Position numbers and translations under genes: made by a program
In this document: positions 1 through 42,336 of the stretch, in pieces
Numbering within the stretch: the stretch's first letter is position 1
Layout: each line of letters opens with the position of its first letter
Virus genome (UHGV): UHGV-0083269
Origin: a virus
Direction: 5' to 3' (one strand)
DNA: 44,081 bases
The notes under the pieces: model-generated
What the model was told of the DNA's origin: nothing
Seen by the model: the letters and a program-made list of their open reading frames with translations, nothing else
Database searches by the model: none

Positions 1-55
1 TTACTGGAAGCATCCATTTGTATCTTCTCATATGCTCAGTCCTTCAAATCTTAAT

Positions 56-274
56 TTAAACATATTCAAACTCATCCAGCTCCACATCTTTATCACATGC
101 TGGGCAAGTGCAGAAAGCACCATCCAGCCACGATTCTGTATTGTAATCAGCATCCTGAAACAGTATTTCAACATACTGCTTACAGTGTGGGCACTGGAAC
201 CGGATATAAGCTGGCTTGCTTATTATCATATAACGTGTACCCATGTAATCACCCCACATCTTAATTTTTTTCAT
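56..274 (-). CDS. small zinc-ribbon protein (CPHC...CPAC), early-region ORF
   Basis: 72-aa ORF with two CxxC pairs. The junction cassette lies upstream, at the 261..527 ORF boundary. Confidence 0.45.
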   Translation of the reverse strand: MKKIKMWGDYMGTRYMIISKPAYIRFQCPHCKQYVEILFQDADYNTESWLDGAFCTCPACDKDVELDEFEYV

Positions 275-527
275 TATCTATTCTTTTAAAACGAAATTCT
301 TGCTTTACATCTGGGTATTTTTCAGAATCTACTTTTGATATAAACATATCTAATGGTCTGACCCAAACCTGCGATGGATCTGAGAAATTTTTATAAACAA
401 CCATAATCTCTTCTGTTTCGCTGTTTACAGCTAGATCAGTTACTATATATGTGGCACCTTTGAAATGCTTATATCTATAACCGATCATTCCATTTTTCAT
501 GCAATTAACATGCTCTTGAATATTCAT
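261..527 (-). CDS. hypothetical early protein
   Basis: 88-aa ORF. It is packed tightly with its neighbours and preceded by the junction motif at 539-553. Confidence 0.4.
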   Translation of the reverse strand: MNIQEHVNCMKNGMIGYRYKHFKGATYIVTDLAVNSETEEIMVVYKNFSDPSQVWVRPLDMFISKVDSEKYPDVKQEFRFKRIDNEKN

Positions 528-548
528 TTACTGCCTCACAATCTTAAT

Positions 549-794
549 TTACACATTTACACCGTGCTCTTTCAAAGCCTGTGTCCAAGTTTCTTTTATC
601 TCCTTCGGGCAATGCGCCATAGCATCTGACCATGTAGGCCAACGCCCGTGCTGATCATAGAATTTATACTGATATGCAAGGCTATCCCGATTGTGCGGCT
701 GCTCCGGGTCATGCTTTACTGCACATTCCGGACAAGTTCCCTCCGGTGTTTTACCAAGCAGTGCCATTCCATATATTTTTTTCAAATATCCCAT
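549..794 (-). CDS. hypothetical early protein (Cys/His-containing)
   Basis: 81-aa ORF. Its stop codon lies inside the conserved TAAATTAAGATTG cassette. Confidence 0.4.
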   Translation of the reverse strand: MGYLKKIYGMALLGKTPEGTCPECAVKHDPEQPHNRDSLAYQYKFYDQHGRWPTWSDAMAHCPKEIKETWTQALKEHGVNV

Positions 795-816
795 ATCTCT
801 TCTTTCTCCTAAGATT

Positions 817-1092
817 TTAAAACTCAGTTACTCCATCCGGGCCTTCCAGATCTGCAGTATTGTCTTCGTACTCGCACCTGGAGATGAGGGTTATATTTTC
901 CACCGGGACCTTGCAGGTTTTCGCAAATCCAGCCTTCCACTCTTCTGCCATCACCGGAAGATTCACGCTTCCTAAATTTTCTGTGTCAAAATCAAACGCC
1001 ACCATCGCATAACCTGTGCTTTCCGGTCCACCGTATAAGTCAGCCCCTACGATCTCGTAATACAAACTTAATGTTACTTGTACTGTATTCAT
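817..1092 (-). CDS. hypothetical early protein
   Basis: 91-aa ORF with start at 1092. A GGGAGAG RBS sits in the cassette at 1093-1113. Confidence 0.4.
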   Translation of the reverse strand: MNTVQVTLSLYYEIVGADLYGGPESTGYAMVAFDFDTENLGSVNLPVMAEEWKAGFAKTCKVPVENITLISRCEYEDNTADLEGPDGVTEF

Positions 1093-1113
1093 CTTCGCTC
1101 TCCCAATCTTAAT

Positions 1114-1378
1114 TTACCTTCCTTGTGTTTCCACAACATTCAATATTTTTTCAACTGCCTTTTCCCAAAAATACCGGGCAAAATCTTCAACTGTACAAAC
1201 AACATCTTCGTCTAAATCTATAACGGTCGCATCATCGCATTGGCAGCTATGACAACCATTTTCTTGCAGAACTTCATCCGCTATTTCTCGGACAGTTTCT
1301 GCTGTTCCGCTGAATTCGCACCCCAACGAACAAAACTCTCTTAGTTCTTCCATATCCTTTTTTGATAATTTTGCCACT
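1114..1378 (-). CDS. Cys-rich hypothetical protein (probable GTG start)
   Basis: ORF track gives 1114..1395. A GGAGGGAG RBS is followed about 8 nt later by GTG near 1378. Cys-rich motifs: CSLGCEF, CHSCQC. Confidence 0.4.
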
Positions 1379-1404
1379 ATTATTTCTCCCTCCAAATTCT
1401 TAAT

Positions 1405-1608
1405 TTACCGATGATACCAGATCATCTTACCGTCTGCCATTTTTAATTCCACTTTGTCCGGATAATTGATGCTTTCCTTGGATGCGTGAAATCTCATGTC
1501 ATGAATTTCTAGTGCAGACTTATGGTTACTTTCGCACTGCTTACACTCATTTTTGTCTTTATACTGCGTACCACAATGGTCACATACATACAATTGTAAA
1601 CTTTTCAT
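1405..1608 (-). CDS. small zinc-finger protein (CDHC...CKQC)
   Basis: 67-aa ORF with two CxxC pairs. Its stop lies in a cassette copy at 1391-1407. Confidence 0.45.
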   Translation of the reverse strand: MKSLQLYVCDHCGTQYKDKNECKQCESNHKSALEIHDMRFHASKESINYPDKVELKMADGKMIWYHR

Positions 1609-1646
1609 CTTTTACGTTCTAAAATCTCCTTCTGGAATCTTAACTT

Positions 1647-1946
1647 TCAGTTTTCTCCAGCAAATCTCGGAACAAAAAAACCAAAATCAATTGCTGGAAA
1701 ACCATTCTTTCTGTTTATGTTGTTTCTAATTCCGTAAAAATCGTGCATAAAGTTGAAATCATCCGCATTCAGCCAAACATCCAAACGAAGGTGAAACTTT
1801 TTATCTGCGCTTTCAATATCCATCATACGTTCTGTAGCTTCCGTCTCTTTCATCAAGCCCATGACAGTGGCTCTTCCCATAATAGCAGCATACGTTAAAT
1901 GTCTCTTGCGTTCTACTTCTTTGTTAAAACTCGTAATCTTACTCAT
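1647..1946 (-). CDS. hypothetical early protein
   Basis: 99-aa ORF. A cassette (TAAATTAAGATTTGGAGGAAATGTGA ATG) lies upstream at 1950-1975. Confidence 0.4.
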   Translation of the reverse strand: MSKITSFNKEVERKRHLTYAAIMGRATVMGLMKETEATERMMDIESADKKFHLRLDVWLNADDFNFMHDFYGIRNNINRKNGFPAIDFGFFVPRFAGEN

Positions 1947-1961
1947 TCACATTTCCTCCAA

Positions 1962-2120
1962 ATCTTAATTTACCGCCATATAAATAAATGGCAAAAACAG
2001 AAACCACATAATATCATCTACTGTCCTCAGCTGGATTTCGCCGTACAGTAACAGCTCTAATCCCATCCATACCAGGGCCAGCACTATCCAAATATATACT
2101 GCCTTTAATGTCCTATCCAT
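1962..2120 (-). CDS. small hydrophobic (2-TM) protein, not in ORF track
   Basis: About 52-aa ORF, MDRTLKAVYIWIVLALVWMGLELLLYG... Its ATG overlaps the stop of 2113..2379 (ATGGATAG), suggesting translational coupling. Its stop falls in the cassette. Confidence 0.3.
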
Positions 2121-2379
2121 TGACCTGTCCTTTCTTGGCTGACATCATGCTCTTATTCGCCGGATTTTCCAGTTCAATCTGTATACCCTGCTTCTGCGGC
2201 TCTTTTACTCCTGTCATGCATTCTCTGATGTATCTATGCGGCACATCACATCCCACCGCATTCATGGCTATTTCATACTGCGCAGCCTGTTTCATCAGTT
2301 TATAAAAATCTGAAAACTTCACCTGCACTCTATCCTCTGCGCCAAACGTATCTGCTAATCCCATTTCATTTTCCTCCAT
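2113..2379 (-). CDS. hypothetical protein
   Basis: 88-aa ORF in the minus-strand operon. Confidence 0.4.
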   Translation of the reverse strand: MEENEMGLADTFGAEDRVQVKFSDFYKLMKQAAQYEIAMNAVGCDVPHRYIRECMTGVKEPQKQGIQIELENPANKSMMSAKKGQVNG

Positions 2380-2458
2380 ATTTCAGTTTGTGACATCACT
2401 GATAATCCCCCGCAGTTTCCTGCATTCCACTGTTGTTATTGTGTTTTCTTCCATCTCT

Positions 2459-3196
2459 CTATCCCTCCATGCTTAAATAACACATTATTCCGCAATCTGG
2501 AAATATCTCTGTATTCATATTCCCGCGTGTAGGCTCTAGCTCGTCAAGGTATACCGGGTGGCCTTTGCTGTCTTTCAATATTGCATAGCCCACCTGCCGC
2601 TCCAATCTGGCCCGACTCTCAAAAACCTCTGGGAAGTCCTTGCGAATCCGGTTCCAATAACCCATTCCTCCTTTGACGCACCCGAGGCAGTTATTATTTG
2701 GATACCCCATGTCATACATAACTGGCCGCCTAAAAGAAAAGGTCCTTTCAAATAGTCCGTGAACCTCTTCTTTCGATAATCCACGGTCAATCAACGGAAA
2801 CTCATGAGCTGCCTGTGAGTTAGCCTCTATGGTTCGCTCTGCCCGCCATTTCTCTTTCAGGTCAAATCCCCAGACATAGGTCAGATCATAATCTTTATGA
2901 GCTAACTCCCATTCTTTACGAACACGCTTTTTAAGCCAGTTTGTGCAGGGAGCAAAACCATTCATAGCACGAAAACCACCAAAAGCTCTGACACAATCAT
3001 CAACACTGCTGTATTCCTCAGATCTCAAAATCTGTATCTTCTGTCCGATTGCAGCTTCACAATCCCGTATAAATCGTATGCTGTCTGGATGCTGATCTTT
3101 GATATCTATATAAATCCATTCGTCAACATCTCCTGCCAGGTATCCAGCCATAAAACTGCTTACTCCTGCACTGATCCAACACACTTTTTTCGTCAT
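2459..3196 (-). CDS. PAPS-reductase-like (PP-loop ATP pyrophosphatase family) protein, phage type
   Basis: 245 aa. N-terminal CWISAGVSS PP-loop-like motif and C-terminal NCLGCVKGG, an architecture typical of phage PAPS-reductase-family (DndC/IbrA-like) proteins. Confidence 0.65.
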   Translation of the reverse strand: MTKKVCWISAGVSSFMAGYLAGDVDEWIYIDIKDQHPDSIRFIRDCEAAIGQKIQILRSEEYSSVDDCVRAFGGFRAMNGFAPCTNWLKKRVRKEWELAHKDYDLTYVWGFDLKEKWRAERTIEANSQAAHEFPLIDRGLSKEEVHGLFERTFSFRRPVMYDMGYPNNNCLGCVKGGMGYWNRIRKDFPEVFESRARLERQVGYAILKDSKGHPVYLDELEPTRGNMNTEIFPDCGIMCYLSMEG

Positions 3197-3371
3197 AACA
3201 CCACGCTACAAATGCTGTATCGTGGATCACCATTCGTTTGCTCTTATGCGACCTGTGCCGTTTCCAACACAAGCCTTATAGCCACGGTGTTGAATTTTTC
3301 GGTACGCCACCGTCATTCACTGCGCACCAACCCGGTTTACCGGGCATTCGTTATTCCTTTCTTTTAGTTAT

Positions 3372-3600
3372 AAATTTCATATTGCTCCTTAAATCTGTAC
3401 CATTTCCCGAACATCTCTCAGCGTTTTCGGTGTAGACTGCGCATAATACATACTTGTCACTGCCGGGCTTGCATGTCCTAGAATCTCTTGGATGATACCG
3501 ATATCAACCTTTCTGTTTTTTTAATTCATTCCAAGCGTTTTCCTCATTTTATGAGGATATACCGCGCTTTTCACATCCGCTCTCTTTCCAATATCTTAAT
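3372..3600 (-). pseudogene. truncated duplicate of the 3' end of tyrosine recombinase 41183..42316 plus downstream junction
   Basis: About 95% identical to 41162-41402. It translates to ...VDIGIIQEILGHASPAVTSMYYAQSTPKTLRDVREMVQI*, the recombinase C-terminus including the catalytic Tyr region. It has no N-terminal part and a 1-nt T-run difference. Confidence 0.6.
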
Positions 3601-3699
3601 AAAAGTCATCTGCATCGTCCAGAAAGTCCTCATAGACCTCGCATCCCTCGCAGGTCCGCTCGTTGCATTCCGTAATGTAGTTGCAATACGGGCACCTCA
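3597..3699 (-). CDS. micro zinc-ribbon ORF (about 33 aa), not in ORF track
   Basis: MRCPYCNYITECNERTCEGCEVYEDFLDDADDFY*. A cassette (TTAAGATTGGAGGATGCT ATG) lies upstream at 3700-3720. Confidence 0.3.
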
Positions 3700-3714
3700 T
3701 AGCATCCTCCAATC

Positions 3715-4011
3715 TTAAAATGAATACTTAACCCACATATACATTGTGCTCCCATCAATAGGATAGTAGTATGTGCCATCTCCGCAATCTTCCCCTCTCA
3801 TGGTTTGGTCACAATATTCTCCGTCAAGCTGTTCTTCCCCTTCTGCCAGCTGAGCCGTTCCGAATCCATCAACATAAAAATCTTCATAGCCGTTTTCATT
3901 CGCCCACTCTTCCAGTTCTTCGAAAAGTGTATTGGCCTCGTTCATCAATTTTTCATAGCGTGCCGCCTTTTTAGCCAATTCTATTGGTACAGTCATCCTT
4001 TCATCCTCCAA
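3715..4011 (-). CDS. acidic hypothetical protein
   Basis: 98-aa ORF. A cassette lies upstream at 4003-4020. Confidence 0.4.
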   Translation of the reverse strand: MEDERMTVPIELAKKAARYEKLMNEANTLFEELEEWANENGYEDFYVDGFGTAQLAEGEEQLDGEYCDQTMRGEDCGDGTYYYPIDGSTMYMWVKYSF

Positions 4012-4014
4012 ATC

Positions 4015-4554
4015 TTAATTTCTTATCTCTTGTCTCGATAATCCCTCTCCTCCTGTATTTAATCTCTTAAAAAGCTCATATCTCATTTTAAATTCACTTT
4101 CTTTAAGAATGATTTCTACTCTACATGGTGTACGCTTAATTTGCAATTTATATTCCAATGGTAAAGTATCAATAGTAATATCTTTCAACCCCTTAAGCAT
4201 ACTTCCCTCTACTAATTTCAAGCCATTTTTAGGGTAAGGATTTCCCTCTTCATCTTTTAATTCATTAAAAAAAGATAACACCGTCGATACTCTTTGCAGT
4301 CCATCAATCAGTTCCCATTTTCCATCTGGATTTGTAGCCACAAAAATAGACGGAAAAGGAATCCCTAATAATATTGATTCTATAAAATCTGACTGTCTTT
4401 GTTCATCCCATCGAAAAGCTCTTTGATATTCTGGAGAAATAATTATTTCTTTATCTCTATACATATTAATTATCTCTCCAAAAGACATATCCATCCTCTC
4501 TGATTTTATTTCTTGCCGATATTTTTGAATCTCTGCACTAATATCCATAATCAT
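4015..4554 (-). CDS. DUF262 / ParB-Srx-fold (DGQQR-motif family) protein
   Basis: 179 aa with ...ELIDGLQRVSTV... matching the (I/V)DGQQR signature of DUF262/GmrSD-N/DndB-like domains. AT-rich. It sits 37 nt downstream of the Dcm gene on the same strand. Confidence 0.55.
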   Translation of the reverse strand: MIMDISAEIQKYRQEIKSERMDMSFGEIINMYRDKEIIISPEYQRAFRWDEQRQSDFIESILLGIPFPSIFVATNPDGKWELIDGLQRVSTVLSFFNELKDEEGNPYPKNGLKLVEGSMLKGLKDITIDTLPLEYKLQIKRTPCRVEIILKESEFKMRYELFKRLNTGGEGLSRQEIRN

Positions 4555-4590
4555 GCTTCTCCTATATTCTACTTTCTAAACACTATATAC

Positions 4591-5976
4591 TTATTCATTG
4601 TTAAATATCACAGATAATGTCTTCTCCATATCTACCACCAGATTAACAACCAATGCATTTCCCATCATAAATCTACGTTTTCTTAATGGCATCTTCACAG
4701 TCTCTCCTTTAACCAAACAATACTTTGTATGGTCTGTAGGAAATCCCTGGATTCGTTCTGCTTCTGCTGCAGTAAGTAATCTCACTCTTCCAGTCATCTT
4801 ATCTTTCACAATATGAGTTGTTCTACTGAATCCACCCTCAGATGTCAGCATTGTACGTGCCGGTTTATCTTCCTGATCGATCATAGGAATAGCACCTTCT
4901 GAGAATACATATTCATGACCTGTCGAACTTGTACGCAACAATTTTTTTGCACCTTTCAGGTACTGCCAGGTCTGTCTATCTTCCTTTGAAAGACACTGAT
5001 CCGTTTCATCGCTATGTGTGACTGTTGGATCTGTATAATATAATTTTTCTTCCGGAATAAAATACTGCTCTTCTACTTGTCCAGTTTCCATAACATCGCC
5101 AAGCGTAATCTGCTTTCCATGATAATCGGGAACGGTCTTCATTGTATATATTATTCCATCTTTCATTATTCCGGAATTTTCAAATGCACATTGAAATGTT
5201 TCGGAGACTTCACCTACTTCTACCGGCAGTTTCTTAATTTTCATCTTAGCAGACTCTGCTTTATTTACTGGAAATGTTTCTGCAAAAAAGCCTTCTTTTA
5301 AGATTACATTTTCCATACATTCTTTCTTATATTCTTCTTCCAATGCATCTGTATATCCAATTGTATTTAAAACTCTATCCGCATATTTTGTATTATTTTT
5401 ATAGGCAAAAATAAATGTTCTACGACGTCTCTGCTGATACCCATATTCCGCAGCATTTATCACACGCCATTCCACTGTATATCCTTCATCTCGAAAACAT
5501 GCAAGAATCACACCAAAATCTCTACCTCTTTGTTTTGCAGGAGATTTTAACAATCTATCAACATTTTCTAATAATACGAATGGTGGTTTCTTTGCTTCTA
5601 AGGTCTCACGTATTGACCACCATAAAATTCCTTTTTTTCCCTCGAGTCCTTTGGAAGTAGCTAATGAAGAAGCTACAGAATAGTCCTGACACGGGAATCC
5701 ACCAACAAGCAAATTAAAGTCAGGAAGTGTTGTCTTATCCACATCTTCAATATTATAATTCGTGGTATCATCACCATTATTATCTAATCGTGTTCCAAAT
5801 CGATATACATAACAATCATGTGCGTACTGTGTATTTTTCTCTGCTGGCTCCCACTGACTAAACCAAACGGTATCCCATTTTTCTTCTTTTCCATAATCTT
5901 CTGCTGTTCTTATATTATTAAGCCCACATCTAAAGCCACCTACTCCGGCGAACAATTCGCAAACTGTTTTCTTCAC
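4591..5976 (-). CDS. dcm: DNA (cytosine-5)-methyltransferase
   Basis: 461 aa. Motif I FAGVGGF, motif IV GFPCQDYS, motif VI ENV, C-terminal GNALVV. AT-rich, moron-like. Confidence 0.9.
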   Translation of the reverse strand: MKKTVCELFAGVGGFRCGLNNIRTAEDYGKEEKWDTVWFSQWEPAEKNTQYAHDCYVYRFGTRLDNNGDDTTNYNIEDVDKTTLPDFNLLVGGFPCQDYSVASSLATSKGLEGKKGILWWSIRETLEAKKPPFVLLENVDRLLKSPAKQRGRDFGVILACFRDEGYTVEWRVINAAEYGYQQRRRRTFIFAYKNNTKYADRVLNTIGYTDALEEEYKKECMENVILKEGFFAETFPVNKAESAKMKIKKLPVEVGEVSETFQCAFENSGIMKDGIIYTMKTVPDYHGKQITLGDVMETGQVEEQYFIPEEKLYYTDPTVTHSDETDQCLSKEDRQTWQYLKGAKKLLRTSSTGHEYVFSEGAIPMIDQEDKPARTMLTSEGGFSRTTHIVKDKMTGRVRLLTAAEAERIQGFPTDHTKYCLVKGETVKMPLRKRRFMMGNALVVNLVVDMEKTLSVIFNNE

Positions 5977-6022
5977 TTCTTTTACCTCTTTTTATATTCT
6001 TGTAAAGATCCTTTTCTATTTT

Positions 6023-6514
6023 TTAGTATGATTTTATAAAATCTTTAATCTGTTGTTTCAGATATTTCTTGTTAAACCAAAAGCATTGTTTTGTCATGTA
6101 TTCTCCAGTAGGTATCAAAGTATTTTTCAATTCCTCTGGAATTTCTTTTAGCGTGATAACCTCTGCCGTTTTTTTCAACCTCACTGAATTAGCATTTTCA
6201 CAAAAATACTCGCTCTCACCAGCTTTATTTCTTACATGTGCCACATTATTAAAGTTGCTTTTCGGAAAATTATTTTCATATACGAATACTGGATCTGTTA
6301 CATTGGTCCTGTATACAGCACTGCGCCTGCATTCGCAATAAACATATACCCTTACAAGATCATGCAGCGGAGTGATCGCTCCACATCTGCACCTGTAATG
6401 ATCTGACTTCCGTCTTCCGCAATACGCATTCAGCATCCCACACTTTTCACAGCGGATAGCAAGAAAACCTTTGTATCCTTCTTCCGGCTCTATTTTCTGT
6501 ACTTTTTTGTTCAT
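6023..6514 (-). CDS. Cys-rich putative zinc-binding protein
   Basis: 163 aa with multiple CxxC pairs (CEKCG, CRCG, CECRR). Confidence 0.4.
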   Translation of the reverse strand: MNKKVQKIEPEEGYKGFLAIRCEKCGMLNAYCGRRKSDHYRCRCGAITPLHDLVRVYVYCECRRSAVYRTNVTDPVFVYENNFPKSNFNNVAHVRNKAGESEYFCENANSVRLKKTAEVITLKEIPEELKNTLIPTGEYMTKQCFWFNKKYLKQQIKDFIKSY

Positions 6515-6896
6515 TTTTTCCCCTTTCCAAATTCCCGCCGTTATTAGTAATTACTCATGTTTGTGGGCTTTTTTGTGCTGCTCTGTGGTCCCTCCTTTTG
6601 GGCCGGGAAATGGAGGACTGTGATAGGCTCCCGGCCCAGGTAAAATTATCGGTCAGAGTGTATATCGTGACATATAAACCGACCACAAGTTTTTTATCTA
6701 TGTATCATCCCCGTTTTGGATCGGGGTGGATACCTTTTTTATAGCTTTATGCGTCCGTCTGTTTGGATCTGGGCATAAAGCCGTGCCGTCATATGCTGGT
6801 CTCCTGAAGCTTTCGCTCATAGGAGATGGGTATTTTTCCAAATATGCCAGCTCGGCCATTTTCTTTTTTACACTTTTTTCATGGTATGTAACTTTA

Positions 6897-7493
6897 TCAT
6901 TGTGACTTATCATTATCCATCCACTCTTTTACTTTATCCTGCATTATGCTGTTATAGTCTGTATCGCGCTGATCGTAGTTAAAAAATGCATTCTGTTTTT
7001 TAGGCTGGCTTTTCCCAGCCTTTGCCGATTTATCTTGCTCTCTCGCAAACCAGCTGTTCAGAAAACGTGGTGCACCTTTCCGTGTTTTTCGGCGTGTAGG
7101 GTTCGAATCACACCACCCGATGATCTTGTTAAGCTCTTGCCTACAATCAACACCCGGGTACAGCTTTTGCATCTTATCAAGCGCAGTTTCTGTTACTTCG
7201 TATAATGTCCCATCATTAAGCTTAAATGCTCCAACTACAGGCCCATTTTCTTCTTCCGAAATATCTTCTGCTGGTCGCCCGCCTTTTGATCCATTGACCT
7301 TTCGCTTGATATTGGCATCAATTTGTGGTTTGGCCATCTCGTATATGGACATATACAGCTCTCCAGTGTCTTCTGGTTCTTCTCCTTCCAGCCCATAATC
7401 AATGATGGACCATAGCGCTTTAAGCTGTTGATTTTCTGGTAGCCGCTTGATAGCCTTTGCAAAACTGCTGTAAAAAATTAAGCTATCTCTCAT
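6897..7493 (-). CDS. putative replication-associated protein (DnaD/replisome-organizer C-terminal-like)
   Basis: 198 aa. ...KIIGWCDSNPTRRKTRKGAPRFLNSWFAREQ resembles conserved phage replication-protein C-termini. Weak call. Confidence 0.3.
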   Translation of the reverse strand: MRDSLIFYSSFAKAIKRLPENQQLKALWSIIDYGLEGEEPEDTGELYMSIYEMAKPQIDANIKRKVNGSKGGRPAEDISEEENGPVVGAFKLNDGTLYEVTETALDKMQKLYPGVDCRQELNKIIGWCDSNPTRRKTRKGAPRFLNSWFAREQDKSAKAGKSQPKKQNAFFNYDQRDTDYNSIMQDKVKEWMDNDKSQ

Positions 7494-7818
7494 TTCTCCC
7501 AGCCTCCCACTCCCGGTAAATTTTTATCCAGTCGGAAAGCCGCATGGTTACCAACCATTCGCAGCGATCCCGCCTGTGGAATACCGCCGGGAGGAGTCCG
7601 GGAAGCGCATCATGCACTGCCTGTGCTACCGCATCCAGAAGATTGAGTTTCTCAACCCTCTTGCACTCAACGTGGATACCTGGAAGCCCAATCACATCAG
7701 CATTACCTGCTGCGCCGCAGTATTGCTGCCCTCTTCTGGCATCGTATCCGTACTCCCGGAACACTCCGGCGAGCTCCCTTTCTCCGCGTTTTCCCTTTTC
7801 TCTCTGTGTCTTACCCAT
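7483..7818 (-). CDS. putative Holliday-junction resolvase (Hjc-like PD-(D/E)xK)
   Basis: ERELAGVFREYGYDARRG...GNADVIGLPGIHVECKRV matches the Hjc pattern (ERxL..., D, ExK). The likely start is MGKTQ rather than the upstream extension. Confidence 0.45.
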   Translation of the reverse strand: MGKTQREKGKRGERELAGVFREYGYDARRGQQYCGAAGNADVIGLPGIHVECKRVEKLNLLDAVAQAVHDALPGLLPAVFHRRDRCEWLVTMRLSDWIKIYREWEAGRNER

Positions 7819-8215
7819 CACAACAACCTCCAAACAATGATAGCTGCTCATATTTCTCTTTATCAGGTGGCTTCATGTTCCTCGCGAAACGCTTAGCACC
7901 TCTTTCTGCCGTCTTTATGCTTCTGCATCTTCTATCCTGTGTCTCAATCCATCGGACCGCTTCACGCCGTCCCTGTGCATCTGTACGTGGGATATAATAG
8001 CCCAGTCCGTTATCTGCTGTGAGAATTGGGCGATCATACCGCAGTATCTCAATCGCTTTCCGTACCGCTCTGTCTGGTAATCCAGTTACCCGGCATAATT
8101 CCCTACGGTTTGTGGCGTTTTCCTTACCTACGCCAATCGCATTATATACAGTTTCTGTTGCAGCAGATGTTAATCTAAAATCCATAGCTTTCCTTTCTAC
8201 TTGCCTAGATATCAT
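7811..8215 (-). CDS. winged-HTH domain protein
   Basis: 134 aa. ELCRVTGLPDRAVRKAIEILR is HTH-like. Confidence 0.35.
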   Translation of the reverse strand: MISRQVERKAMDFRLTSAATETVYNAIGVGKENATNRRELCRVTGLPDRAVRKAIEILRYDRPILTADNGLGYYIPRTDAQGRREAVRWIETQDRRCRSIKTAERGAKRFARNMKPPDKEKYEQLSLFGGCCDG

Positions 8216-8499
8216 AAATATGATTCGCCAAACTCCCGGCGAAAGTCTTCCCGACTCCCGTAGTGAGTCTCATAATACCGCTGAGCCTTGCGCTTCAGGC
8301 TCTCATCAAACCTCTGATCCATGTGGACACTGTACGGCGTCATATTGTGCCAATCCGGACGGAGCGGCACCAGAAACCCATACTTCTCCGACAGCTTCCG
8401 ATTTGCTCCGTTAAAGACGTGATGGATAGCCACGTTGCTTGATCTGGTGATGATGCAATGCTCCAGATCATCTGTTAAAGTGCTATACAGTCTTTTCAT
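8212..8499 (-). CDS. putative HNH-like nuclease
   Basis: 95 aa. ...IHHVFNGANRKLSEKYGFLVPLRPDWHN is a His/Asn-spaced HNH-like motif. Confidence 0.35.
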   Translation of the reverse strand: MKRLYSTLTDDLEHCIITRSSNVAIHHVFNGANRKLSEKYGFLVPLRPDWHNMTPYSVHMDQRFDESLKRKAQRYYETHYGSREDFRREFGESYL

Positions 8500-8513
8500 G
8501 TTTTACTTAGCTC

Positions 8514-9104
8514 CTAATTCGTTTTGTTGAGACCAACAAAACGTTTGTGGTTCTGTTCATATAGCTGCTTCATCCGCTCCAATTCTTCCGGTGTGGCTGT
8601 TTCTATCCCAGCCGCCTTGCATTCGCTTATCAGACCATCCAATAGGTGTGACATTTCTGCGCTGTCGTAATTGCTGGATCCTTTGAGCAACACATAAGTT
8701 CTATAGCTTACGCCATCACTTCCGGCAACAACCTGTGATGTGGGTTTTAAATGAAATGTCTCTCTTTCAATCACATCATTTTCTGCTTCCTCTGTGTCAG
8801 GTATCCGCACATAGTATCGAGAACCGTCAAACAACTCTACCTGTCCATATCCTCTAAGCATAAGGTTATGCGCTCTTGGCTTTGAGATATGTGCTGCCTC
8901 TGCCAGCTTAGACAGCAATACCCAGTAATAAGAATTGCTGTCAAGGCTGCGCTTGTCTCTCCACTGCTTTGCAGTCAACCTAAGGGTTTTATCCCGCATG
9001 CCATCAATCTGGCCTGATATATCGTCTTCAGCTTCGAAAGTTACACGGAGTTTTCCCGTTGCCCAGTCTCGCGTTACATCAGTTAATGTGCATTTACACT
9101 CCAT
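8514..9104 (-). CDS. hypothetical protein of recombination module
   Basis: 196-aa ORF immediately downstream of the ERF gene. No family recognised. Confidence 0.35.
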   Translation of the reverse strand: MECKCTLTDVTRDWATGKLRVTFEAEDDISGQIDGMRDKTLRLTAKQWRDKRSLDSNSYYWVLLSKLAEAAHISKPRAHNLMLRGYGQVELFDGSRYYVRIPDTEEAENDVIERETFHLKPTSQVVAGSDGVSYRTYVLLKGSSNYDSAEMSHLLDGLISECKAAGIETATPEELERMKQLYEQNHKRFVGLNKTN

Positions 9105-9112
9105 AAGCTACC

Positions 9113-9742
9113 TCACTTCCGCGTAAGACCCTCATCTGCCTTGTCTGGCTTTTTATTAAGTATTTCCATTGCTTTTTTCCAATCCTCAAGTCTAAGATCA
9201 TGCACGTCAGTCACATTGTATGTCTGCAATATTCCTTTAAGGCCTACCCCAGTTCGTTGAAGCTCGGCAAATAATTCATTTACGTACCCCGCTTCAAGCA
9301 CTGGCTTACTCGGCAGCGGTGTTTCTGCATCTGGGTCTTTCATTTCTTCTGTCGGGATGCAAAAAACCTGGAAGCACGCATATTTAAATGCTATTGACAT
9401 TGCTTTGTTGGTCGCTTTGTCGCCGCTGTCCATTCCTTCACCGATCACCGTTGCAGAAACGGAAGATCCATCTTCTGCATAAAAAGTATATTTCACAGTG
9501 CAGATGGAGTAGATCAGATTTCCGCCCTTTGCCGTGAGACGTTCTTCACGTCTCTGTTCCAAAATCTCCGGCACAACAAATAATTTGTGTTTTATCAGCG
9601 CCGGATTGATCGCATTCATGACAGCATCAATACCGCGATACATGAATCGTTGCTGTTCATTTCGGCTATCCTTTCCAACCGCTCCGATTTCAGCCATGAC
9701 GGCAGTTATCGTCTCATAAATATTTTTCTTCTTCTCATCCAT
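9113..9742 (-). CDS. erf: ERF-family single-strand annealing protein
   Basis: 209 aa. ...NEQQRFMYRGIDAVMNAINPALIKHKL matches the ERF conserved block. Its position after Gp157 is typical. Confidence 0.6.
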   Translation of the reverse strand: MDEKKKNIYETITAVMAEIGAVGKDSRNEQQRFMYRGIDAVMNAINPALIKHKLFVVPEILEQRREERLTAKGGNLIYSICTVKYTFYAEDGSSVSATVIGEGMDSGDKATNKAMSIAFKYACFQVFCIPTEEMKDPDAETPLPSKPVLEAGYVNELFAELQRTGVGLKGILQTYNVTDVHDLRLEDWKKAMEILNKKPDKADEGLTRK

Positions 9743-9750
9743 ACTCTCAC

Positions 9751-10242
9751 CTACTTAATCTGGAGATTCTGCCTTGCAACCAGCCGTGCCCCTTTGACTT
9801 CTGTGCCACTTTTCAAGAGCTTCTTAAGTGCTGTCTTATCCACTACCGGATCAGCAATCTTGATACAGGATTGCGGCAAGGCGTTGACATCACCAGCAAA
9901 TTCAACAGCTTCTGACTTTCTCCATGATGCTGATACACGCTCCGTCTGGAACTTCTGTCCATTCAGCACCCCGCTGACATATTCTTTAAGGCTTTCGGCT
10001 TTCGCTTCCGCTCTTGATTGTCGATCTGCAAAGGCCATTTTTTCTTTTTTCAGTGCCTCTGCATCCGACTGCAAATTTTTAATCCATAAAAGGATATTTT
10101 CTATTTTCTCATTAAGATCGCACTGTAAGCTATCAATGGCCGCATACGCTTCTGTATCAACAATCTCTCCTGTCTCTGGATCTAAGGCATTTTCAAACGC
10201 ATTCATAATTTCCGCGTTGATCTGGTATAAATTCACGTTCAC
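9751..10242 (-). CDS. Siphovirus Gp157-family protein
   Basis: 163-aa coiled-coil protein directly upstream of ERF, resembling S. thermophilus phage Sfi Gp157-family proteins. Confidence 0.5.
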   Translation of the reverse strand: MNVNLYQINAEIMNAFENALDPETGEIVDTEAYAAIDSLQCDLNEKIENILLWIKNLQSDAEALKKEKMAFADRQSRAEAKAESLKEYVSGVLNGQKFQTERVSASWRKSEAVEFAGDVNALPQSCIKIADPVVDKTALKKLLKSGTEVKGARLVARQNLQIK

Positions 10243-10682
10243 ATTCCTCCATTACGTTCTGCCTGTTTTTTCTTTGTTTTGCCCTATCTCTGCATTTACA
10301 GCACTCGTCTGCTTCGCAGCTATCACACCGGCTGTTCATTTTCTTCACCATCAAGCAAAGCAATCATCACATCATCATCTACTATAGTCCCCGATTTGGC
10401 TTTTAAATATGCCAGCGTTGCACTTACTCGTCCTTTTAATAAGACCAGCTCTGTAAACTCCTCATACGGGATTTCAATCTTTTTTTTCTCTTCCATCTTG
10501 CATTCCTCCTGCGCACCTGCTAAACTGTAATTGTAATTTTTTTGTTAAATGGTCGTTCAGCTCCGTCAAGCTTGCGGCCTTTTTCTTTGGTTTGGCATAT
10601 CCAGTGTATTTACTACCTCCGCATAATTCAGCGGCCCTGTTTGTGCCGTTTACCCTCCTACTCATGCTTTCCTCCTTTTGAG

Positions 10683-10898
10683 TTAGATTGCATGTACTCG
10701 CATAAATACAACAAACAGCAAGATCACAAATCCAAAGGTTGCGCATCCGACAACAAACATTGTTGTCAACATGTCAACTGCCAGATCAAGCACCTTGAGA
10801 AAAAAACTTCTCTCCTGTCTCTTGGTCTCTTCTTTTTCACTTCGTACAGCCACATAACTGGGCATCTTGTACTCACTTATAAACTTAAGCTTTGCCAT
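10683..10898 (-). CDS. small membrane protein
   Basis: 71 aa with a hydrophobic stretch FVVGCATFGFVILLFVVFM. Confidence 0.3.
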   Translation of the reverse strand: MAKLKFISEYKMPSYVAVRSEKEETKRQERSFFLKVLDLAVDMLTTMFVVGCATFGFVILLFVVFMRVHAI

Positions 10899-10904
10899 TT
10901 TTCT

Positions 10905-11123
10905 TTACCCCCTTATAGCCCACAGCAAATTAGATACTAATAATGCCATTGCTGTGAACACCCAAGCTATAAACCATTTTTCAGCATCTTTGTATGCCTG
11001 AGCTATAATTTCTTCGATATCCTGCCATTCAAGTGTTTTATCTGCTTTATCTTGTGTCATGTTTCTCAAATAACCTCTGTTTTTTCGCCGTCCTCTATCC
11101 CTGCGGCCTTTAATATGGCCCAC
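10905..11123 (-). CDS. small membrane protein
   Basis: 72 aa with C-terminal TM segment FIAWVFTAMALLVSNLLWAI. Confidence 0.3.
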   Translation of the reverse strand: MGHIKGRRDRGRRKNRGYLRNMTQDKADKTLEWQDIEEIIAQAYKDAEKWFIAWVFTAMALLVSNLLWAIRG

Positions 11124-11302
11124 AGTTCCCTCAGCCGCATAGAGCCGGGATCCTGCTTTCTCAGCCGGTACGTTGACAGTTTCATTCCCGCCATCTTAGC
11201 CATGCGATTATCGTCATAGCGCTTGCGGGATTTGATTACGTCAAGGAGTATCTGGAGGTTTTCCCCTTTCTCCTCGGCGTATGTCTTTTTTTTAAGCGCC
11301 AT
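11066..11302 (-). CDS. Cro-like HTH regulator, first gene of the leftward early operon
   Basis: Likely start MALKKK at about 11302 with a GGGGGT RBS. HTH RMAKMAGMKLSTYRLRK. It faces the operator/repeat-rich divergent region at 11363-11580. Confidence 0.45.
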   Translation of the reverse strand: MALKKKTYAEEKGENLQILLDVIKSRKRYDDNRMAKMAGMKLSTYRLRKQDPGSMRLRELWAILKAAGIEDGEKTEVI

Positions 11303-11444
11303 ACTACCCCCGATCTTGTAAATGCTCTTGTGTTCAAAGCCAGTGTAAAAACCCATAAGCATCCAATCTAACGCGTAGCACTGCTACCGTGTTGCGCCTA
11401 CTTACGGGCCGGAGAGGCTCCTGCCAGCTCCGGGCATACAGCTA

Positions 11445-11495
11445 TTTACATTTACCTTTACATTTACATTAACATTTACCTTTACATTAGGTTTT
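11445..11495. repeat. tandem degenerate 8-10-mer array (CATTTACA / TTTACCTTTA / CATTTACATT...)
   Basis: Visible tandem TTTAC(A/C)TT units in the divergent promoter region. Confidence 0.6.
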
Positions 11496-11504
11496 CTGAT
11501 TACA

Positions 11505-11545
11505 TAACCTATGGTTTTTAAATTAAAAAACCTATGGTTATTTAC
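11505..11545. promoter_or_regulatory. two copies of the operator-like inverted repeat AACCTATGGTT, just upstream of a TATAAT -10
   Basis: AACC-TAT-GGTT at about 11507 and 11530. A third copy lies at about 14731 upstream of int. TGTGATATAAT at about 11555-11563 and an AAAGGAGAAG RBS precede the ATG at 11582. Confidence 0.5.
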
Positions 11546-11581
11546 TCCTTATGTGATATAATTCATTTCAAAGGAGAAGTT

Positions 11582-11935
11582 ATGAACCATATCGATTTTT
11601 CAAACATTGAGCTATCTCTTAAAGAGAAAATAACACTACATCTTTTACTGTTTTTTCGTTCCAACCGCCTGTACGATCAAAATATTCTTGATAATCTTTT
11701 GAGACTTGGTCTCCTCGATCGTGTGCATGGAATTTATGCGGTAAATAGATTTGGAAAAATGTATTTCCGCGTCAAACGCAAAGAACGGATGCGATTCATA
11801 ATACCAACAGCAATATCAGTCGTTGCACTATTTGCTGGATATGATGTATACAAGATTCCACTTCTGGACGAAGCATTATCAACAGCAAAGATATTACTGG
11901 TGCATATACTGGAAAGTTTGGGAATTTTGCCATGA
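11582..11935 (+). CDS. hypothetical protein of the lysogeny island (possible membrane segment)
   Basis: ATG at 11582 after an AAAGGAGAAG RBS. 117 aa. Confidence 0.4.
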   Translation: MNHIDFSNIELSLKEKITLHLLLFFRSNRLYDQNILDNLLRLGLLDRVHGIYAVNRFGKMYFRVKRKERMRFIIPTAISVVALFAGYDVYKIPLLDEALSTAKILLVHILESLGILP

Positions 11936-11989
11936 ACCATTCCAGAAGCGTCTTTCTTGGTTCGCAGAAATACCAGTGAATGAATTTTC

Positions 11990-12196
11990 TCACTTGCTTT
12001 TCTCACAACCTTTCAATTCAAGTAAATCATCTGCCAAATGCCCTAACGGAATTTTTTCACCCGGCTGCACATCAGCCGCTTTCGGATATTCCAATCCGCT
12101 CTTGTCTCCGGTCAATACCGCAATGGTCAGTTGATTTACTTTGTGCTGTAAGTATCTTATGTAATTAAAAAGATACTCCTCTTCGCTTTTCTTCAC
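11990..12196 (-). CDS. hypothetical small protein, probably coupled to excisionase
   Basis: 68-aa ORF that starts immediately after the stop of the upstream xis-like ORF. Confidence 0.3.
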   Translation of the reverse strand: MKKSEEEYLFNYIRYLQHKVNQLTIAVLTGDKSGLEYPKAADVQPGEKIPLGHLADDLLELKGCEKSK

Positions 12197-12385: not shown

Positions 12386-12799
12386 TGTATCACCTCCTTA
12401 TAGTGCTTTTTAGTTGTGTTTGCCTTGCGTTTGTGATATGCTATATATGCCTTTTGGCAAGGAAAGGAGCTGGTGTCTATTGACCAAACTTTTGTCTTTG
12501 CCTGCTCTCTCTGCATTTAATCCGCCCACACTGAAACCTCGACAGCCTAAACAGGTCAAAGGCGGCGCTGAATGTTTTGCCAGCGATTAGGCATATTGCA
12601 GAACCAAAACTGCGAAAGTGGCAAAGTGCTTCAAGAAGCATTTGGCACCATCATATGCGGCTCATGCCTGCAAAGTACATAGGGTAAACAAATTTGGAAA
12701 AGAACTGTTCAGAATGGTGCTCTGGGCAGTTTCTTTTTGCAGTTTTGCGTCAAAAATTGCATTCCTGACAAAAAACTTTATGCAAAAGTACAATTATAC

Positions 12800-12932: not shown

Positions 12933-12976
12933 TAGTTTTATCTCAATTTTCTAAACTATTTTTTGAGGTGCGAACT

Positions 12977-13360
12977 ATGTATGAAATTTTTAAAATGCTG
13001 TGCGAAGAAAAAGGTATAACGACATACCGTTTCTGCAAAGACACCGGGGTAAACTCCTCAACAATAAGCACATGGAAAACAAAAAATTCCGTATGCAGTT
13101 CAAGGCTCGCCGGAATAGTTGCCAAATATTTTGGAGTGTCCGTTGATTATGTACTTACAGGAAAGGAGGAGGTTGCCGTTGCACAGGAAGAGCACATTGA
13201 TTTAAAAGCGGAATTTAACCGCATCAAGAAACTGTTGGAAAGCGGGGAAAACGCACCATTATACTTTGACGGTCAGCCCGCAGATCAGGAGAGCATCAAC
13301 TTGCTGCTCGATCAGATCAAGATATCTGTTGCGCTTATGGAACGTATGCGCAAAAAATAG
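12977..13360 (+). CDS. XRE-family HTH repressor (CI-like)
   Basis: HTH ITTYRFCKDTGVNSSTISTWKTKN. GAGGTG RBS. Directly followed by an ImmA-like gene. Confidence 0.8.
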   Translation: MYEIFKMLCEEKGITTYRFCKDTGVNSSTISTWKTKNSVCSSRLAGIVAKYFGVSVDYVLTGKEEVAVAQEEHIDLKAEFNRIKKLLESGENAPLYFDGQPADQESINLLLDQIKISVALMERMRKK

Positions 13361-13372
13361 GAGAAGTGGAAC

Positions 13373-13798: not shown

Positions 13799-13855
13799 GG
13801 GGGATGTGTCGATCAGTACGGTGCCCCGTTGATTGAGTGGTGATCTTATTTATAA

Positions 13856-14521: not shown

Positions 14522-14693
14522 TTTTATTTAATTCTTCAGATTGTTGAGCTAGATGAACGCCAGATTCAAAAGCTTCTCTTACAGCAGCTTTCATCTGCCG
14601 CAGAGGAGAGGGGGCATTCTCAGGAGTGACGATGCTTTCCAGACGCTCAACACGATTTACTAAGTTATTCCATCGTTTTTTTGATATAAACAT
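14499..14693 (-). CDS. small hypothetical protein, convergent with the moron
   Basis: 64-aa ORF overlapping the 3' end of 13856..14521. Confidence 0.25.
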   Translation of the reverse strand: MFISKKRWNNLVNRVERLESIVTPENAPSPLRQMKAAVREAFESGVHLAQQSEELNKIKKHYIP

Positions 14694-14915
14694 AAAATAC
14701 CATCCTTTTTATTTTTATCATATCAGAAAAACCTATGGTTATATCACCAATATAAAAAACGCCCGGCGCTACCAACACCAGACGTTTTAGGAGTGTGATA
14801 TTTCTACCACGAAGCCTACACCCGTATAATATCACATTTCCAGGCAGTCACGCAAGATAAACCATGTAAAAATCTGGTGGCTGTATTTTTTATACCCCAA
14901 AAGGAGTGTGCGACT

Positions 14916-16157
14916 ATGGCAAAAGCAAAAAAATTACCCTCAGGATCATGGCGTGTACTGGTGTTTGACCACTACGAGCCTGTCTTAAATCCAGACGGAA
15001 CACCCGTCATGCAAAACGGAAAACCGAAACAAAAAAGAATATATCAGTCCTTTACGGATGATGACCCGTCAACCAAAGGACGCAAACGGGTCGAATTGGC
15101 AGCTGCACAATACATGGCAGAGAAAGATTCACGTGAAGCGGAAAGGCGCAACCAAGAGGAGAATATGACGCTTAGAGGGGCGGCAGAAAAATATATAGAT
15201 CTGTGCAGAACATTGAAAAGGTCTCCGTCCACCATAGAAGACTATGAGTGTATCATGCGGAACGGGTTCCAGGATCTTTTTAACATGCGCCTGTGTGACA
15301 TATCGGAAGATCTACTGCAAAACGCCATAGCCAAAGAAGCGCAGAGGCCTGTCAACGGGAAGCCGGGTAAAACCCTTACAGCAAAGCGGCTGAAAAATGA
15401 ATGGGGGTTTGTATCCTCTGTGCTGCACAAATACACAAACATCCGCACCGACAATCTGCAATTACCTACGCCAACGCAAAGAATGGTTGACCTGCCAGAT
15501 GCAAAAACAGTAATGGACATAGTACGCGGCACCGAAATGGAGCTGCCGGTGCTGCTTGCAATGTGGCTGTCGTTCACGGCATCGGAGATCCGCGGTCTTA
15601 CAAAATCCAAATCAATTAATGGTGATTACATAACAATAAAAGAGACGGTCATTACCGTAAAAGGAAAAGCTGTAAGAAAAGAGACAGCGAAGAACAACAC
15701 GAGAAAACGCAAACACAAAATACCGGCTTATATAAAAGGTCTGATCGACAAGGTTCCTGGCGATGTACTGGTGCCGATGACTGATGTTTCATTGCACCAC
15801 CGCTGGAAACGCTTACAAAAAAGCTACGGTATAAAAGACCCTATCACGTTTCACGACCTCAGACATCTTAATGCCTCAGTAATGGCCCTGCTGCAAATAC
15901 CGGATAAATACGCTCAGGAGCGCGGTGGCTGGAAGTCGGATGCTGTCATGAAAAAGATCTACATGCAGACATTTTCGTCGGAGCGGCAAAAGGTTGATGA
16001 TAAAATTGACAGCTACTTTGAGAGCATCGTGGGAACCGAAAAAAGCGAAAAAGAATCCATAAAAGAAGTTGTGAACCGGCTGAAAAAAGAAGATCCAGAG
16101 GGATGGAAAAAAGCCATTTTAGAAGCTATGCAACACGAAATGCAACACGCGCAATAA
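14916..16157 (+). CDS. int: tyrosine integrase with N-terminal arm-binding-type domain
   Basis: ATG at 14916 after an AAAAGGAG RBS. HDLRH (HxxR) box and catalytic Tyr in GGWKSDAVMKKIY. N-terminus MAKAKKLPSGSWR is typical of phage Int. Confidence 0.9.
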   Translation: MAKAKKLPSGSWRVLVFDHYEPVLNPDGTPVMQNGKPKQKRIYQSFTDDDPSTKGRKRVELAAAQYMAEKDSREAERRNQEENMTLRGAAEKYIDLCRTLKRSPSTIEDYECIMRNGFQDLFNMRLCDISEDLLQNAIAKEAQRPVNGKPGKTLTAKRLKNEWGFVSSVLHKYTNIRTDNLQLPTPTQRMVDLPDAKTVMDIVRGTEMELPVLLAMWLSFTASEIRGLTKSKSINGDYITIKETVITVKGKAVRKETAKNNTRKRKHKIPAYIKGLIDKVPGDVLVPMTDVSLHHRWKRLQKSYGIKDPITFHDLRHLNASVMALLQIPDKYAQERGGWKSDAVMKKIYMQTFSSERQKVDDKIDSYFESIVGTEKSEKESIKEVVNRLKKEDPEGWKKAILEAMQHEMQHAQ

Positions 16158-32122: not shown

Positions 32123-32126
32123 AAAA

Positions 32127-40960: not shown

Positions 40961-41143
40961 TCAGTTTAATTGAGAATCTACTTTCTCATAATTTACAAAT
41001 TCAGTTTCGTAATTTGGTTTATGAAGAGTTAAATCCATTATGTCAATGCAATTATAACAAGGTGCTTCAACAGTCATCTTTCCCTTATGCTTGCAAGTTC
41101 CACAAGGCGTATAATCCTTTCCATCTTTCAAAAAACCTTTCAT
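40961..41143 (-). CDS. small zinc-ribbon protein (CGTC...CYNC)
   Basis: Likely start MKGF after the cassette TTAAGATTTGGAGGAGGATTA ATG. Confidence 0.4.
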   Translation of the reverse strand: MKGFLKDGKDYTPCGTCKHKGKMTVEAPCYNCIDIMDLTLHKPNYETEFVNYEKVDSQLN

Positions 41144-41182
41144 TAATCCTCCTCCAAATCTTAAATTCATTAAATCGGCTCC

Positions 41183-42316
41183 TTAAATCTGTACCATTTC
41201 TCGGACATTTCTTAACGTCTCCGGTGTAGACTGCGCATAATACATGCTTGTTACTGCTGGGCTTGCATGTCCTAAAATCTCTTGGATGATACCGATATCA
41301 ACCTTTCTGTTTTTTAAATTCATTCCAAGCGTTTTCCTCATTTTATGAGGATATACCGCGCTTTTCACATCCGCTCTCTTTCCAATATCTTTAATTATGA
41401 CTCTTAAACCGCATACGCTCATTTTATTGTATGGTGCCCTGGTCTGTGGAAACATGTACGGGCTGCTGTCCGTTCTGCTTTCAAGATATTCATTGTAATA
41501 GTGCCTTGCATCATCATCAAGGTATAATGTGCGGTATCTGCCGCCCTTCTCCCCTTTGATGAGTATATCTCCCGTTTCTGTATTGATCTGGTCGATTCTG
41601 ATCTCTGAGATTTCTCCAACCCGCGCTCCGGTGCTGCGGAATACCTCAATGATCGCACGCTCTCTTTTTGTGCGGCAAGCGTCACGCATCTGGATAATCT
41701 CCGACCGGCTAAAGTAATCAATTGGCTTTAGCGCAATCTTTTTCGCTTCCGTTGCTTCCACAGGATTTTCATCAATGAGTTTTGATTTTCGCATCCATGT
41801 GTAAAAAGCCGAAAGGAATCGGCGCTCGTTATTGTATGTGCTGTCCTGTACCTTTTCACTTTTTGTTCCTGGGCGTTTCTCGTACTGTGCCAAATACCAC
41901 TCCACATCAAATGTATCTACACTGTCCAACGACTTCCCCATCATGTCAGATAACCTTTTTACAGATCGGATATATCCGCTGATTGTCGCAGGACTGAGCC
42001 CGCGCTTTTTGATCTTGAAAAGTTCCAGTAAATAGCGGTTTCTTTTTTCTACATCTGTTTTCCACTCCGCTGGAAGAGATGTGATTTCCTGCACATTTAC
42101 CTTTGTAAGCTCACTCGATACTACACTATCCAGGATTGCAAGTGTGTCCGAATCAGAAATGTAAATCGACATTGCAACAATGATGTTATCAACGATTTCT
42201 CTTTTGATATTCTGGCCCATAGTAATCCTCCCTCTTGCAGAATCTGCAAAGGTCTGATACAATGGACCTAAGCAGATCAGGTAAGTGGCGGTAACATCTT
42301 GGCGGGTGTCCACCAC
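41183..42316 (-). CDS. second tyrosine recombinase (XerC/D-like or phage-integrase family)
   Basis: ARVGEISEIR (Arg), HKMRKTLGMNL (HxxR), LGHASPAVTSMYYAQ (His...Tyr). Confidence 0.85.
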   Translation of the reverse strand: MVDTRQDVTATYLICLGPLYQTFADSARGRITMGQNIKREIVDNIIVAMSIYISDSDTLAILDSVVSSELTKVNVQEITSLPAEWKTDVEKRNRYLLELFKIKKRGLSPATISGYIRSVKRLSDMMGKSLDSVDTFDVEWYLAQYEKRPGTKSEKVQDSTYNNERRFLSAFYTWMRKSKLIDENPVEATEAKKIALKPIDYFSRSEIIQMRDACRTKRERAIIEVFRSTGARVGEISEIRIDQINTETGDILIKGEKGGRYRTLYLDDDARHYYNEYLESRTDSSPYMFPQTRAPYNKMSVCGLRVIIKDIGKRADVKSAVYPHKMRKTLGMNLKNRKVDIGIIQEILGHASPAVTSMYYAQSTPETLRNVREMVQI

Positions 42317-42336
42317 TTATTTTTTTGTGTCATTGT

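Follow-up and report, generated by a model that had tools for sequence, protein, structure and literature searches.

The question raised by this locus is why the genome of a temperate, siphovirus-like phage carries the 3' end of a tyrosine-recombinase gene twice, and whether the second copy is a working element or a remnant. The window, i.e., the whole analysed 44,081-nt sequence of the virus genome UHGV-0083269, had been the subject of a sequence-only reading, in which the regions 3372-3600 and 41162-41402 were noticed to be about 95% identical, and the segment of 6.4 kb lying between them across the circle was proposed to reflect a past cassette insertion or duplication, or to be liable to recombinational deletion or inversion. 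Results of our analysis indicate, with a probability that we place at about 85%, that the copy deprived of the rest of the gene (copy A) is a hitch-hiker without function, carried along with a 1.21-kb block that was inserted after a 34-aa zinc-ribbon gene (Zn34), and that this scar arose via microhomology at a junction motif. The locus is a case of ordinary phage mosaicism, in which a partial gene duplicate was left as a recombination scar, and not a working element; the repeat is neither a switch, nor an att site, nor a mobile-element boundary. The coordinates of the relevant features are collected in Table 1.

Table 1. Features of the repeat, of the translocated or imported block and of the junction motif, with their positions in the window.
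Feature	Position	Strand	Remarks
Copy A, orphan 3' fragment of tyrosine-recombinase gene	3384..3597	-	69 codons, stop, GGAGC
Copy B, intact 3' end of int2	41178..41391	-	69 codons, stop, GGAGC (5 nt past the stop)
int2, 377-aa tyrosine recombinase	41183..42316	-	Pfam: SAM-like N-domain and Phage_integrase (residues 206-364)
Putative translocated/imported 1.21-kb block	3597..about 2384-2388	-	int tail, spacer, PAPS-reductase-like gene, stub of 52-aa ORF
Spacer after int stop	3197..3383	-	187 nt; 9-codon mini-ORF (MKFITKRKE); GC hairpin CCCGGTAAACCGGG
PAPS-reductase-like gene, 245 aa, cargo of the block	2459..3196	-	PHROG 424, E = 3.6e-31
23-codon stub of 52-aa ORF	2383..2454	-	MEENTITTVECRKLRGIISDVTN, then stop; right-hand scar of the block
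Zn34, 34-aa zinc-ribbon gene	3596..3700	-	Its stop and the junction motif form the left crossover (proposed)
Zn69, 69-aa zinc-ribbon ORF	40961..41170	-	In the post-int2 slot, where relatives have the PAPS-reductase-like gene
Junction motif (TTTAAGATTTGGAGG)	41151..41165	-	12 nt past the end of copy B; leads from L003-type sequence to Zn69
Junction motif ATTAAGATTTGGAGG	4005..4019	-	At most 2 mismatches
Further motif sites	41-55, 534-548, 1099-1113, 1955-1969, 43534-43548, 43828-43842	-	At most 2 mismatches
Motif site with indel	3706-3719	-	

Pairwise alignment and a repeat finder applied to the window delimited one long direct repeat, namely 3384-3597 vs. 41178-41391, which is 214 nt long, ungapped and 94.4% identical (blastn E = 1.6e-92). 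The similarity is not far shorter or weaker than it had been judged by eye, and the estimate of its identity was accurate; the boundaries given earlier were 3-16 nt too wide at each end. Copy B comprises 69 codons and the stop of int2, and not about 57 codons, as had been counted, while the absence of the remainder of the recombinase gene at copy A was borne out. The ATG of the following small gene, previously included in the repeat, represents a weak resemblance only, because past the stop codon and GGAGC the two copies diverge into different downstream types (AATATGAAATTTATAAC after copy A and CGATTTAATGAATTTAAGATTTGG after copy B). An inversion of the segment between the copies is excluded, since the repeats are direct. 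The copies differ at 12 bases, their longest exact runs being 75 and 40 nt, and the differences are unevenly spread, one of them falling within the initial 111 nt and 11 within the final 103 nt. The genes around both copies are encoded by the minus strand. Measured from start to start across the circle, the copies are 6,287 nt apart in the window (44,081 - 37,794), and 5,993, 4,393 and 4,079 nt apart in otherwise identical genomes.

The two copies are not equivalent in their coding content. Copy B holds the box II Arg/His and the catalytic Tyr region of int2. Copy A begins directly after the TAA of the Zn34 ORF, and, possessing neither a start codon nor a ribosome-binding site (RBS) of its own, it does not constitute an expressible gene. 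Among the base changes that distinguish the copies, one turns the TTA at repeat position 76 into an in-frame nonsense codon, TAA, in copy A, eight fall within seven synonymous codons, and three give two amino acid replacements, which concern the residue pairs E/K and N/D; at both of these positions copy A has the family consensus (K, D). The identity of copy A to the int tail of the related contig L002 is 95.3%, as compared with 94.4% to copy B, and its translation is that of the L002 int C-terminus, with the exception of the stop codon. From this pattern it follows that copy A diverged within a working gene and was orphaned recently, rather than having decayed in place.

The gene in which copy B resides is itself composite. 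Compared with the int region of another related contig, L001, the window has three mismatches from position 42450 to 41280 and then 17 in the last ~80 nt, i.e., the body of int2 is of L001 type (~100%) down to about 41280, and the last ~100 nt, together with the sequence downstream, are of the type present in the third close relative, L003. The int protein of L001 is 99% identical to int2. Such a switch of sequence type marks a second recombination breakpoint within the repeat. As a separate observation, int2 is the second tyrosine recombinase of this phage, and it is conserved directly upstream of packaging genes (contigs L103, L109, L110, and L113).

The layout of the corresponding region in related phages was studied in 80 viral contigs retrieved with the int2 protein, and in none of them (0/80) did the 214 nt recur within +/-10 kb of int. 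The close relatives L001, L002, and L003 indicate that the ancestral gene order is int, spacer, PAPS-reductase-like gene, 52-aa ORF, and terminase. In L001, a full int is followed by the 187-nt spacer, the PAPS-reductase-like gene, the 52-aa ORF, an 85-aa gene, and terminase; in L002, int and the spacer are followed by a deletion scar and then terminase; in L003, int lies directly before the PAPS-reductase-like gene, from which 4.2 kb of other genes lead to terminase. All three converge on the 85-aa gene and terminase. The full 52-aa ORF follows the PAPS-reductase-like gene in L001 and directly follows int in L004, L005, L007, L010, and L032. The window region 3597..2388 corresponds to L001 2089-3301 (87.6% over 1,213 nt) and the region 3597..3194 to L002 10926-11329 (96.3% over 404 nt); in each of these two relatives, the sequence follows a full int without interruption. 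In the window, the block lies some 6 kb upstream with respect to transcription, directly after Zn34, and the genes at both its ends are truncated: int at codon 309 on the left and the 52-aa ORF after 23 codons on the right.

The genes lying between the repeats are present, in unchanged order, in L002 and L003, which have no copy A; the presence/absence polymorphism affects the 1.21-kb block and not the 6.4-kb segment. Judging from these layouts, the segment between the repeats is the resident early-gene array with int2, and the unit that moved was the 1.21-kb block. Of the earlier proposal of a cassette insertion or duplication, the insertion scar is therefore retained, with the block in place of the 6.4-kb segment as the moved unit. 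No donor identical to the block was found, the L002 and L001 regions given above being the best matches, and a megablast search of window positions 1-12000 against GenBank phages gave no match. The empty site (Zn34, motif, 88-aa gene) was present in no relative, a distant homologue of the 88-aa gene being encoded by one contig (L023); for this reason, the state of the Zn34 region before the insertion is a reconstruction. Two further observations concern the slot between int and terminase. At L002 11300-11480, the ATG that starts the PAPS-reductase-like gene is joined to a C-terminal remnant of a zinc-ribbon ORF, which is another deletion scar between int and terminase. In L099 (a Logan assembly of the same phage, positions 2061-3200), additional genes of 251 and 104 aa are located between Zn69 and the 85-aa gene, which shows further plasticity of this slot.

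The cargo of the block is the PAPS-reductase-like gene, for which no Pfam match was obtained at E <= 0.01. Behind int, L001 and L002 have a conserved version of the 187-nt spacer that precedes it. Its mini-ORF has a good RBS, and its predicted fold (minimum free energy of -59.9 kcal/mol, z = -3.4) is more stable than that of shuffled sequences. The spacer may be a structured leader or attenuator. It matches no known riboswitch or leader family, since a search of Rfam with positions 3100-3700 at E <= 1 gave no match. Elsewhere in the window, gathering-level Rfam matches include FuFi-1 RNA (140.8 bits, 12576-12735, plus strand), as well as RAGATH-21 RNA (79 bits) and three tRNA genes (32371-32440 and 31979-32200, both minus strand).

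The sequence of the left joint indicates how the block may have come to lie behind Zn34. In the window, the joint between Zn34 and the block reads ...GACTTTTATTAAGAT continued by ATTGGAAAGAGAG. The end of Zn34 in other phages is ...GACTTTTATTAAGATTTGGAGG, and the corresponding stretch of int2 is ...GTCATAATTAAAGATATTGGAAAGAGAG; in the junction comparison, which included L009, the aligned sequences were ...TTTTATTAAGATTTGGAGG for Zn34 of L010, ...ATAATTAAAGATATTGGAAAGAGAG for int2, and ...TTTTATTAAGATATTGGAAAGAGAG for the window. Since the joint of the window combines the Zn34 end with the int2 stretch, the left crossover can be placed inside ATTAAGAT, a microhomology of about 8 nt. The partners of this crossover were the stop/RBS motif ATTAAGATTTGGAGG behind Zn34 and its look-alike in int, ATAATTAAAGATATTGGAAAG, which encodes the residues I-I-K-D-I-G-K. 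For the right joint, microhomology is hinted at by the comparison with a single, 60%-identical homologue (L023).

The motif behind Zn34 is not confined to that gene. It consists of a stop codon and GGAGG, is devoid of an inverted repeat and of promoter hexamers, and precedes most of the small early genes. With at most two mismatches, the 15-nt sequence occurs at eight sites of the window, as compared with 0.22 expected, and none of 100 shuffles reached eight; with indels allowed, the number of sites is 11. All of them are on the minus strand and within 41-4021 or 41151-43843, i.e., in the small early-gene array. Next to one of them, a 179-aa ORF (4015-4554, minus strand) with a GmrSD_N (DUF262) domain only ends exactly at the motif 4005-4019 and adjoins a C5 cytosine methylase gene (4591-5976); it may be a truncated gene of GmrSD type.

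Comparison of loci sharing these genes revealed that sequence similarity is frequently interrupted at the motif. In the early region, taking all loci together, 19 of the 37 clusters of homology breakpoints lie no more than 10 nt from a motif, vs. 5.6% of the sequence that is so close to one (binomial P ~1e-14). In L081, L095, and L098, which are otherwise 100% identical to the window, cassettes were gained, lost or replaced with endpoints at the motifs 1955-1969 and 41-55/43828-43842. The exact Zn34 protein is listed for 326 blocks of the contig collection, which belong to phages with unrelated terminases. Among the ten loci shown, five different neighbours were counted downstream of it, and all of their sequences part immediately behind ATTAAGATTT or ATTAATATTT, which differs from it by one base. 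In L008 (10930-11080), int ends short of the catalytic Tyr, cut at another AT-rich look-alike of the motif (GAATTTAAAA joined to TTTAGGAGAG), and its remnant, in which the box II Arg is replaced by His, is fused to the junction and a 91-aa gene; this is an independent accident of the junction motif inside int. A cassette with a 77-aa gene is duplicated in tandem in the window (294 nt; 43533-43826 and 43827-44081 with 1-39), the copies being bounded by motifs, and is single in L094, L002, and L081. The k127 contig of L094, otherwise 100% identical to the window, has 43,914 nt, which equals 43,787 + 127 and suggests a circle of 43,787 bp; the duplication may be a real variant or a product of the way in which the window was closed. 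A search for the exact 15-mer across IMG/VR yielded mostly single matches among the matches listed, which says little in a collection of that size.

In this phage group, most breakpoints of cassette gain and loss are marked by the motif, which acts as a boundary of mosaic segments in general; among otherwise identical genomes from different human gut samples, almost all cassette polymorphisms are bounded by it. A location at gene boundaries is also expected of breakpoints from selection on viable recombinants, and the motif may merely be a translation signal at gene ends. We would only tentatively, and with more doubt than confidence, propose that beyond its role as a translation signal it is an active point of short-homology exchange, common to many otherwise unrelated phages of Lachnospiraceae. 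If active, it would permit cassettes of small early genes to be exchanged, deleted or duplicated and, now and then, to enter by mis-targeting a coding sequence that resembles it, and the int tail of the window and the truncation of int in L008 would be such mis-targeting events.

The proposed origin of the locus involves two exchanges. In one of them, a block that starts with the int tail and runs through the spacer and the PAPS-reductase-like gene to codon 23 of the next ORF would have been inserted into the early small-gene array, with the left crossover at the ~8 nt shared by the motif trailing Zn34 and the int look-alike, and with the right crossover cutting the 52-aa ORF. The source of the block may have been the same genome or a co-infecting relative of L001/L002 type. 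Exchange at such short homology could plausibly have been aided by the phage's own annealing protein of the ERF family, which is encoded in its genome. A separate exchange, extending from its left end in int (~41280-41365) to the junction motif or past it, would have substituted the L003-type tail and Zn69 for the original int tail and cargo. The concentration of the differences between the copies in the last 103 nt, next to a nearly identical first 111 nt, would be due to this L003-type int tail received by the post-int2 slot.

Other explanations of the repeat deserve consideration, and one of them is that two co-occurring strains were joined by the assembler at a shared int sequence. Several contigs do break in the repeat (L095 starts at its position 1, and L101, of 37,829 nt, starts at position 21 with a predicted end at position 55), and the exact junction patterns Zn34/int-tail and int2/Zn69 gave 0 matches in IMG/VR and the JGI metagenome collection. 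Nevertheless, the lineage, which was located by exact-protein look-ups only, has both copies, each 100% identical to those of the window and in the same context, in at least five independent assemblies, so that a chimera has a practically negligible probability. The copies are on one contig in JGI 3300045988 (contig 002302) and in ENA ERZ914767, ERZ27259077, and ERZ27262536, and both are found also in ERZ28665201, the contig of which starts at the repeat edge; the contigs spanning both are L081, L093, L094, L098, and L100. These assemblies differ in assembler and k value (megahit k127, k141, and k119, scaffolds, and JGI assemblies). The breaks at positions 21 and 55 are those expected of a 75-nt exact repeat in a k = 55 graph, and hence they speak for a real repeat. 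L101 was also considered as a circular deletion product, and this was rejected: its start and its predicted end are the edges of the 75-nt shared node, with no shared k-mer overlap.

According to another explanation, a 6.4-kb mobile element carrying int2 is flanked by the repeats as its attL/attR-like sites, or the repeats are targets of a programmed excision or deletion mediated by int2. As in the attL/attR direct repeats of tyrosine-recombinase elements, one repeat overlaps the 3' end of the recombinase gene; the repeats are direct and share 75 nt of exact identity, and the recombinase gene would be intact in an excised circle, given that one repeat holds the end of the full int2. Unlike in such elements, the variable unit is not the segment between the repeats, as the relatives without copy A (L002 and L003) keep the inter-repeat genes and int2 in the same place and order. 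Moreover, the left edge of the repeat is a joint at the stop/RBS motif and the far end of the block truncates an ORF, which is typical of illegitimate and not of site-specific recombination, and 214 nt of diverged sequence with 12 mostly synonymous differences have the character of coding homology and not of an att core. The homologues of int2 remain beside terminase or portal genes in chromosomal prophages of Lachnospiraceae, and the integrase of lysogeny is int1 and not int2, the canonical lysogeny module (int1 at 14877..16157, a CI-like repressor, and an ImmA/IrrE peptidase) being located at 12968-16157. The same prophages, in which int stays directly upstream of terminase/portal, together with the location of the int1 module elsewhere, led us to reject an attP between int2 and terminase. 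A recombinational deletion of the segment, as envisaged in the sequence-only reading, is possible in principle, given the 75 nt of exact identity and the ERF recombinase, and no product of it was seen: variants lacking the 6.4-kb segment and retaining a single repeat were absent from the 23 Zn69-carrying contigs read, and int precedes Zn69 in every locus shown that extends upstream. We therefore regard att-like or excision sites as very improbable.

Slightly better, although still improbable, is the explanation that copy A was kept for a function, serving the PAPS-reductase-like gene as promoter or leader, or encoding a small C-terminal recombinase peptide. The block retained its native upstream region with the structured spacer, copy A contains a weak sigma-70-like match (3574-3546, 9/12 positions), and its frame continues that of Zn34, from which one TAA separates it. 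On the other hand, promoter-like matches are fewer than expected from shuffles (2 vs. 3.7), and the fragment has an internal nonsense codon and lacks a start or RBS of its own. Conservation of copy A is uninformative in this respect, because the genomes that carry it are 100% identical throughout. An integron-like cassette array, which is defined by imperfect palindromes of attC type at cassette ends, an adjacent integrase of IntI type and attI, was considered as well and rejected, because the junctions are a 15-nt linear motif and the repeat search revealed no palindromic elements.

The hitch-hiker origin of copy A places the locus among the mosaic-junction scars that illegitimate or short-homology recombination leaves in temperate phages (PMC3945230; for phage mosaicism in general, PMC3029335). 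Such scars share with the one described here an inserted block of a related genome with genes truncated at both ends. Microhomology at the joint, alternative layouts in relatives, and a recombinase of the ERF family in the genome are further points of likeness. PMC3945230 reports that Rad52-like phage recombinases promote relaxed, short-homology exchange. The difference is that the joint in the window is at a recurrent intergenic motif and its mimic in a coding sequence, and not at a random microhomology.

With regard to the motif, the closest analogy is the PeSL-associated shuffling in T4-type phages (PMC2839356, PMC4122927), in which a short conserved intergenic motif also flanks small, variable early genes. 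Endpoints of insertion, deletion, replacement, and tandem duplication coincide with the motif in the phages studied here as well. PeSLs are described in PMC4122927 as composite promoter-terminator motifs, whereas the motif of the window is a 15-nt stop codon and Shine-Dalgarno context without a stem-loop, and for this reason it works similarly to PeSL but is not a member of that family. In addition, the phages discussed here are temperate and siphovirus-like and have hosts among Lachnospiraceae.

The repeat offers a clean, datable example of phage genome rebuilding, in which a cargo gene took the tail of its upstream neighbour along when it moved, via a joint at a recurrent intergenic motif. 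This motif would be worth a population-scale study of how cassettes are exchanged in gut phages of Lachnospiraceae, and, if its active role proved true, it would represent a counterpart of the T4 PeSL system in temperate phages of Gram-positive bacteria, built on a different kind of motif.
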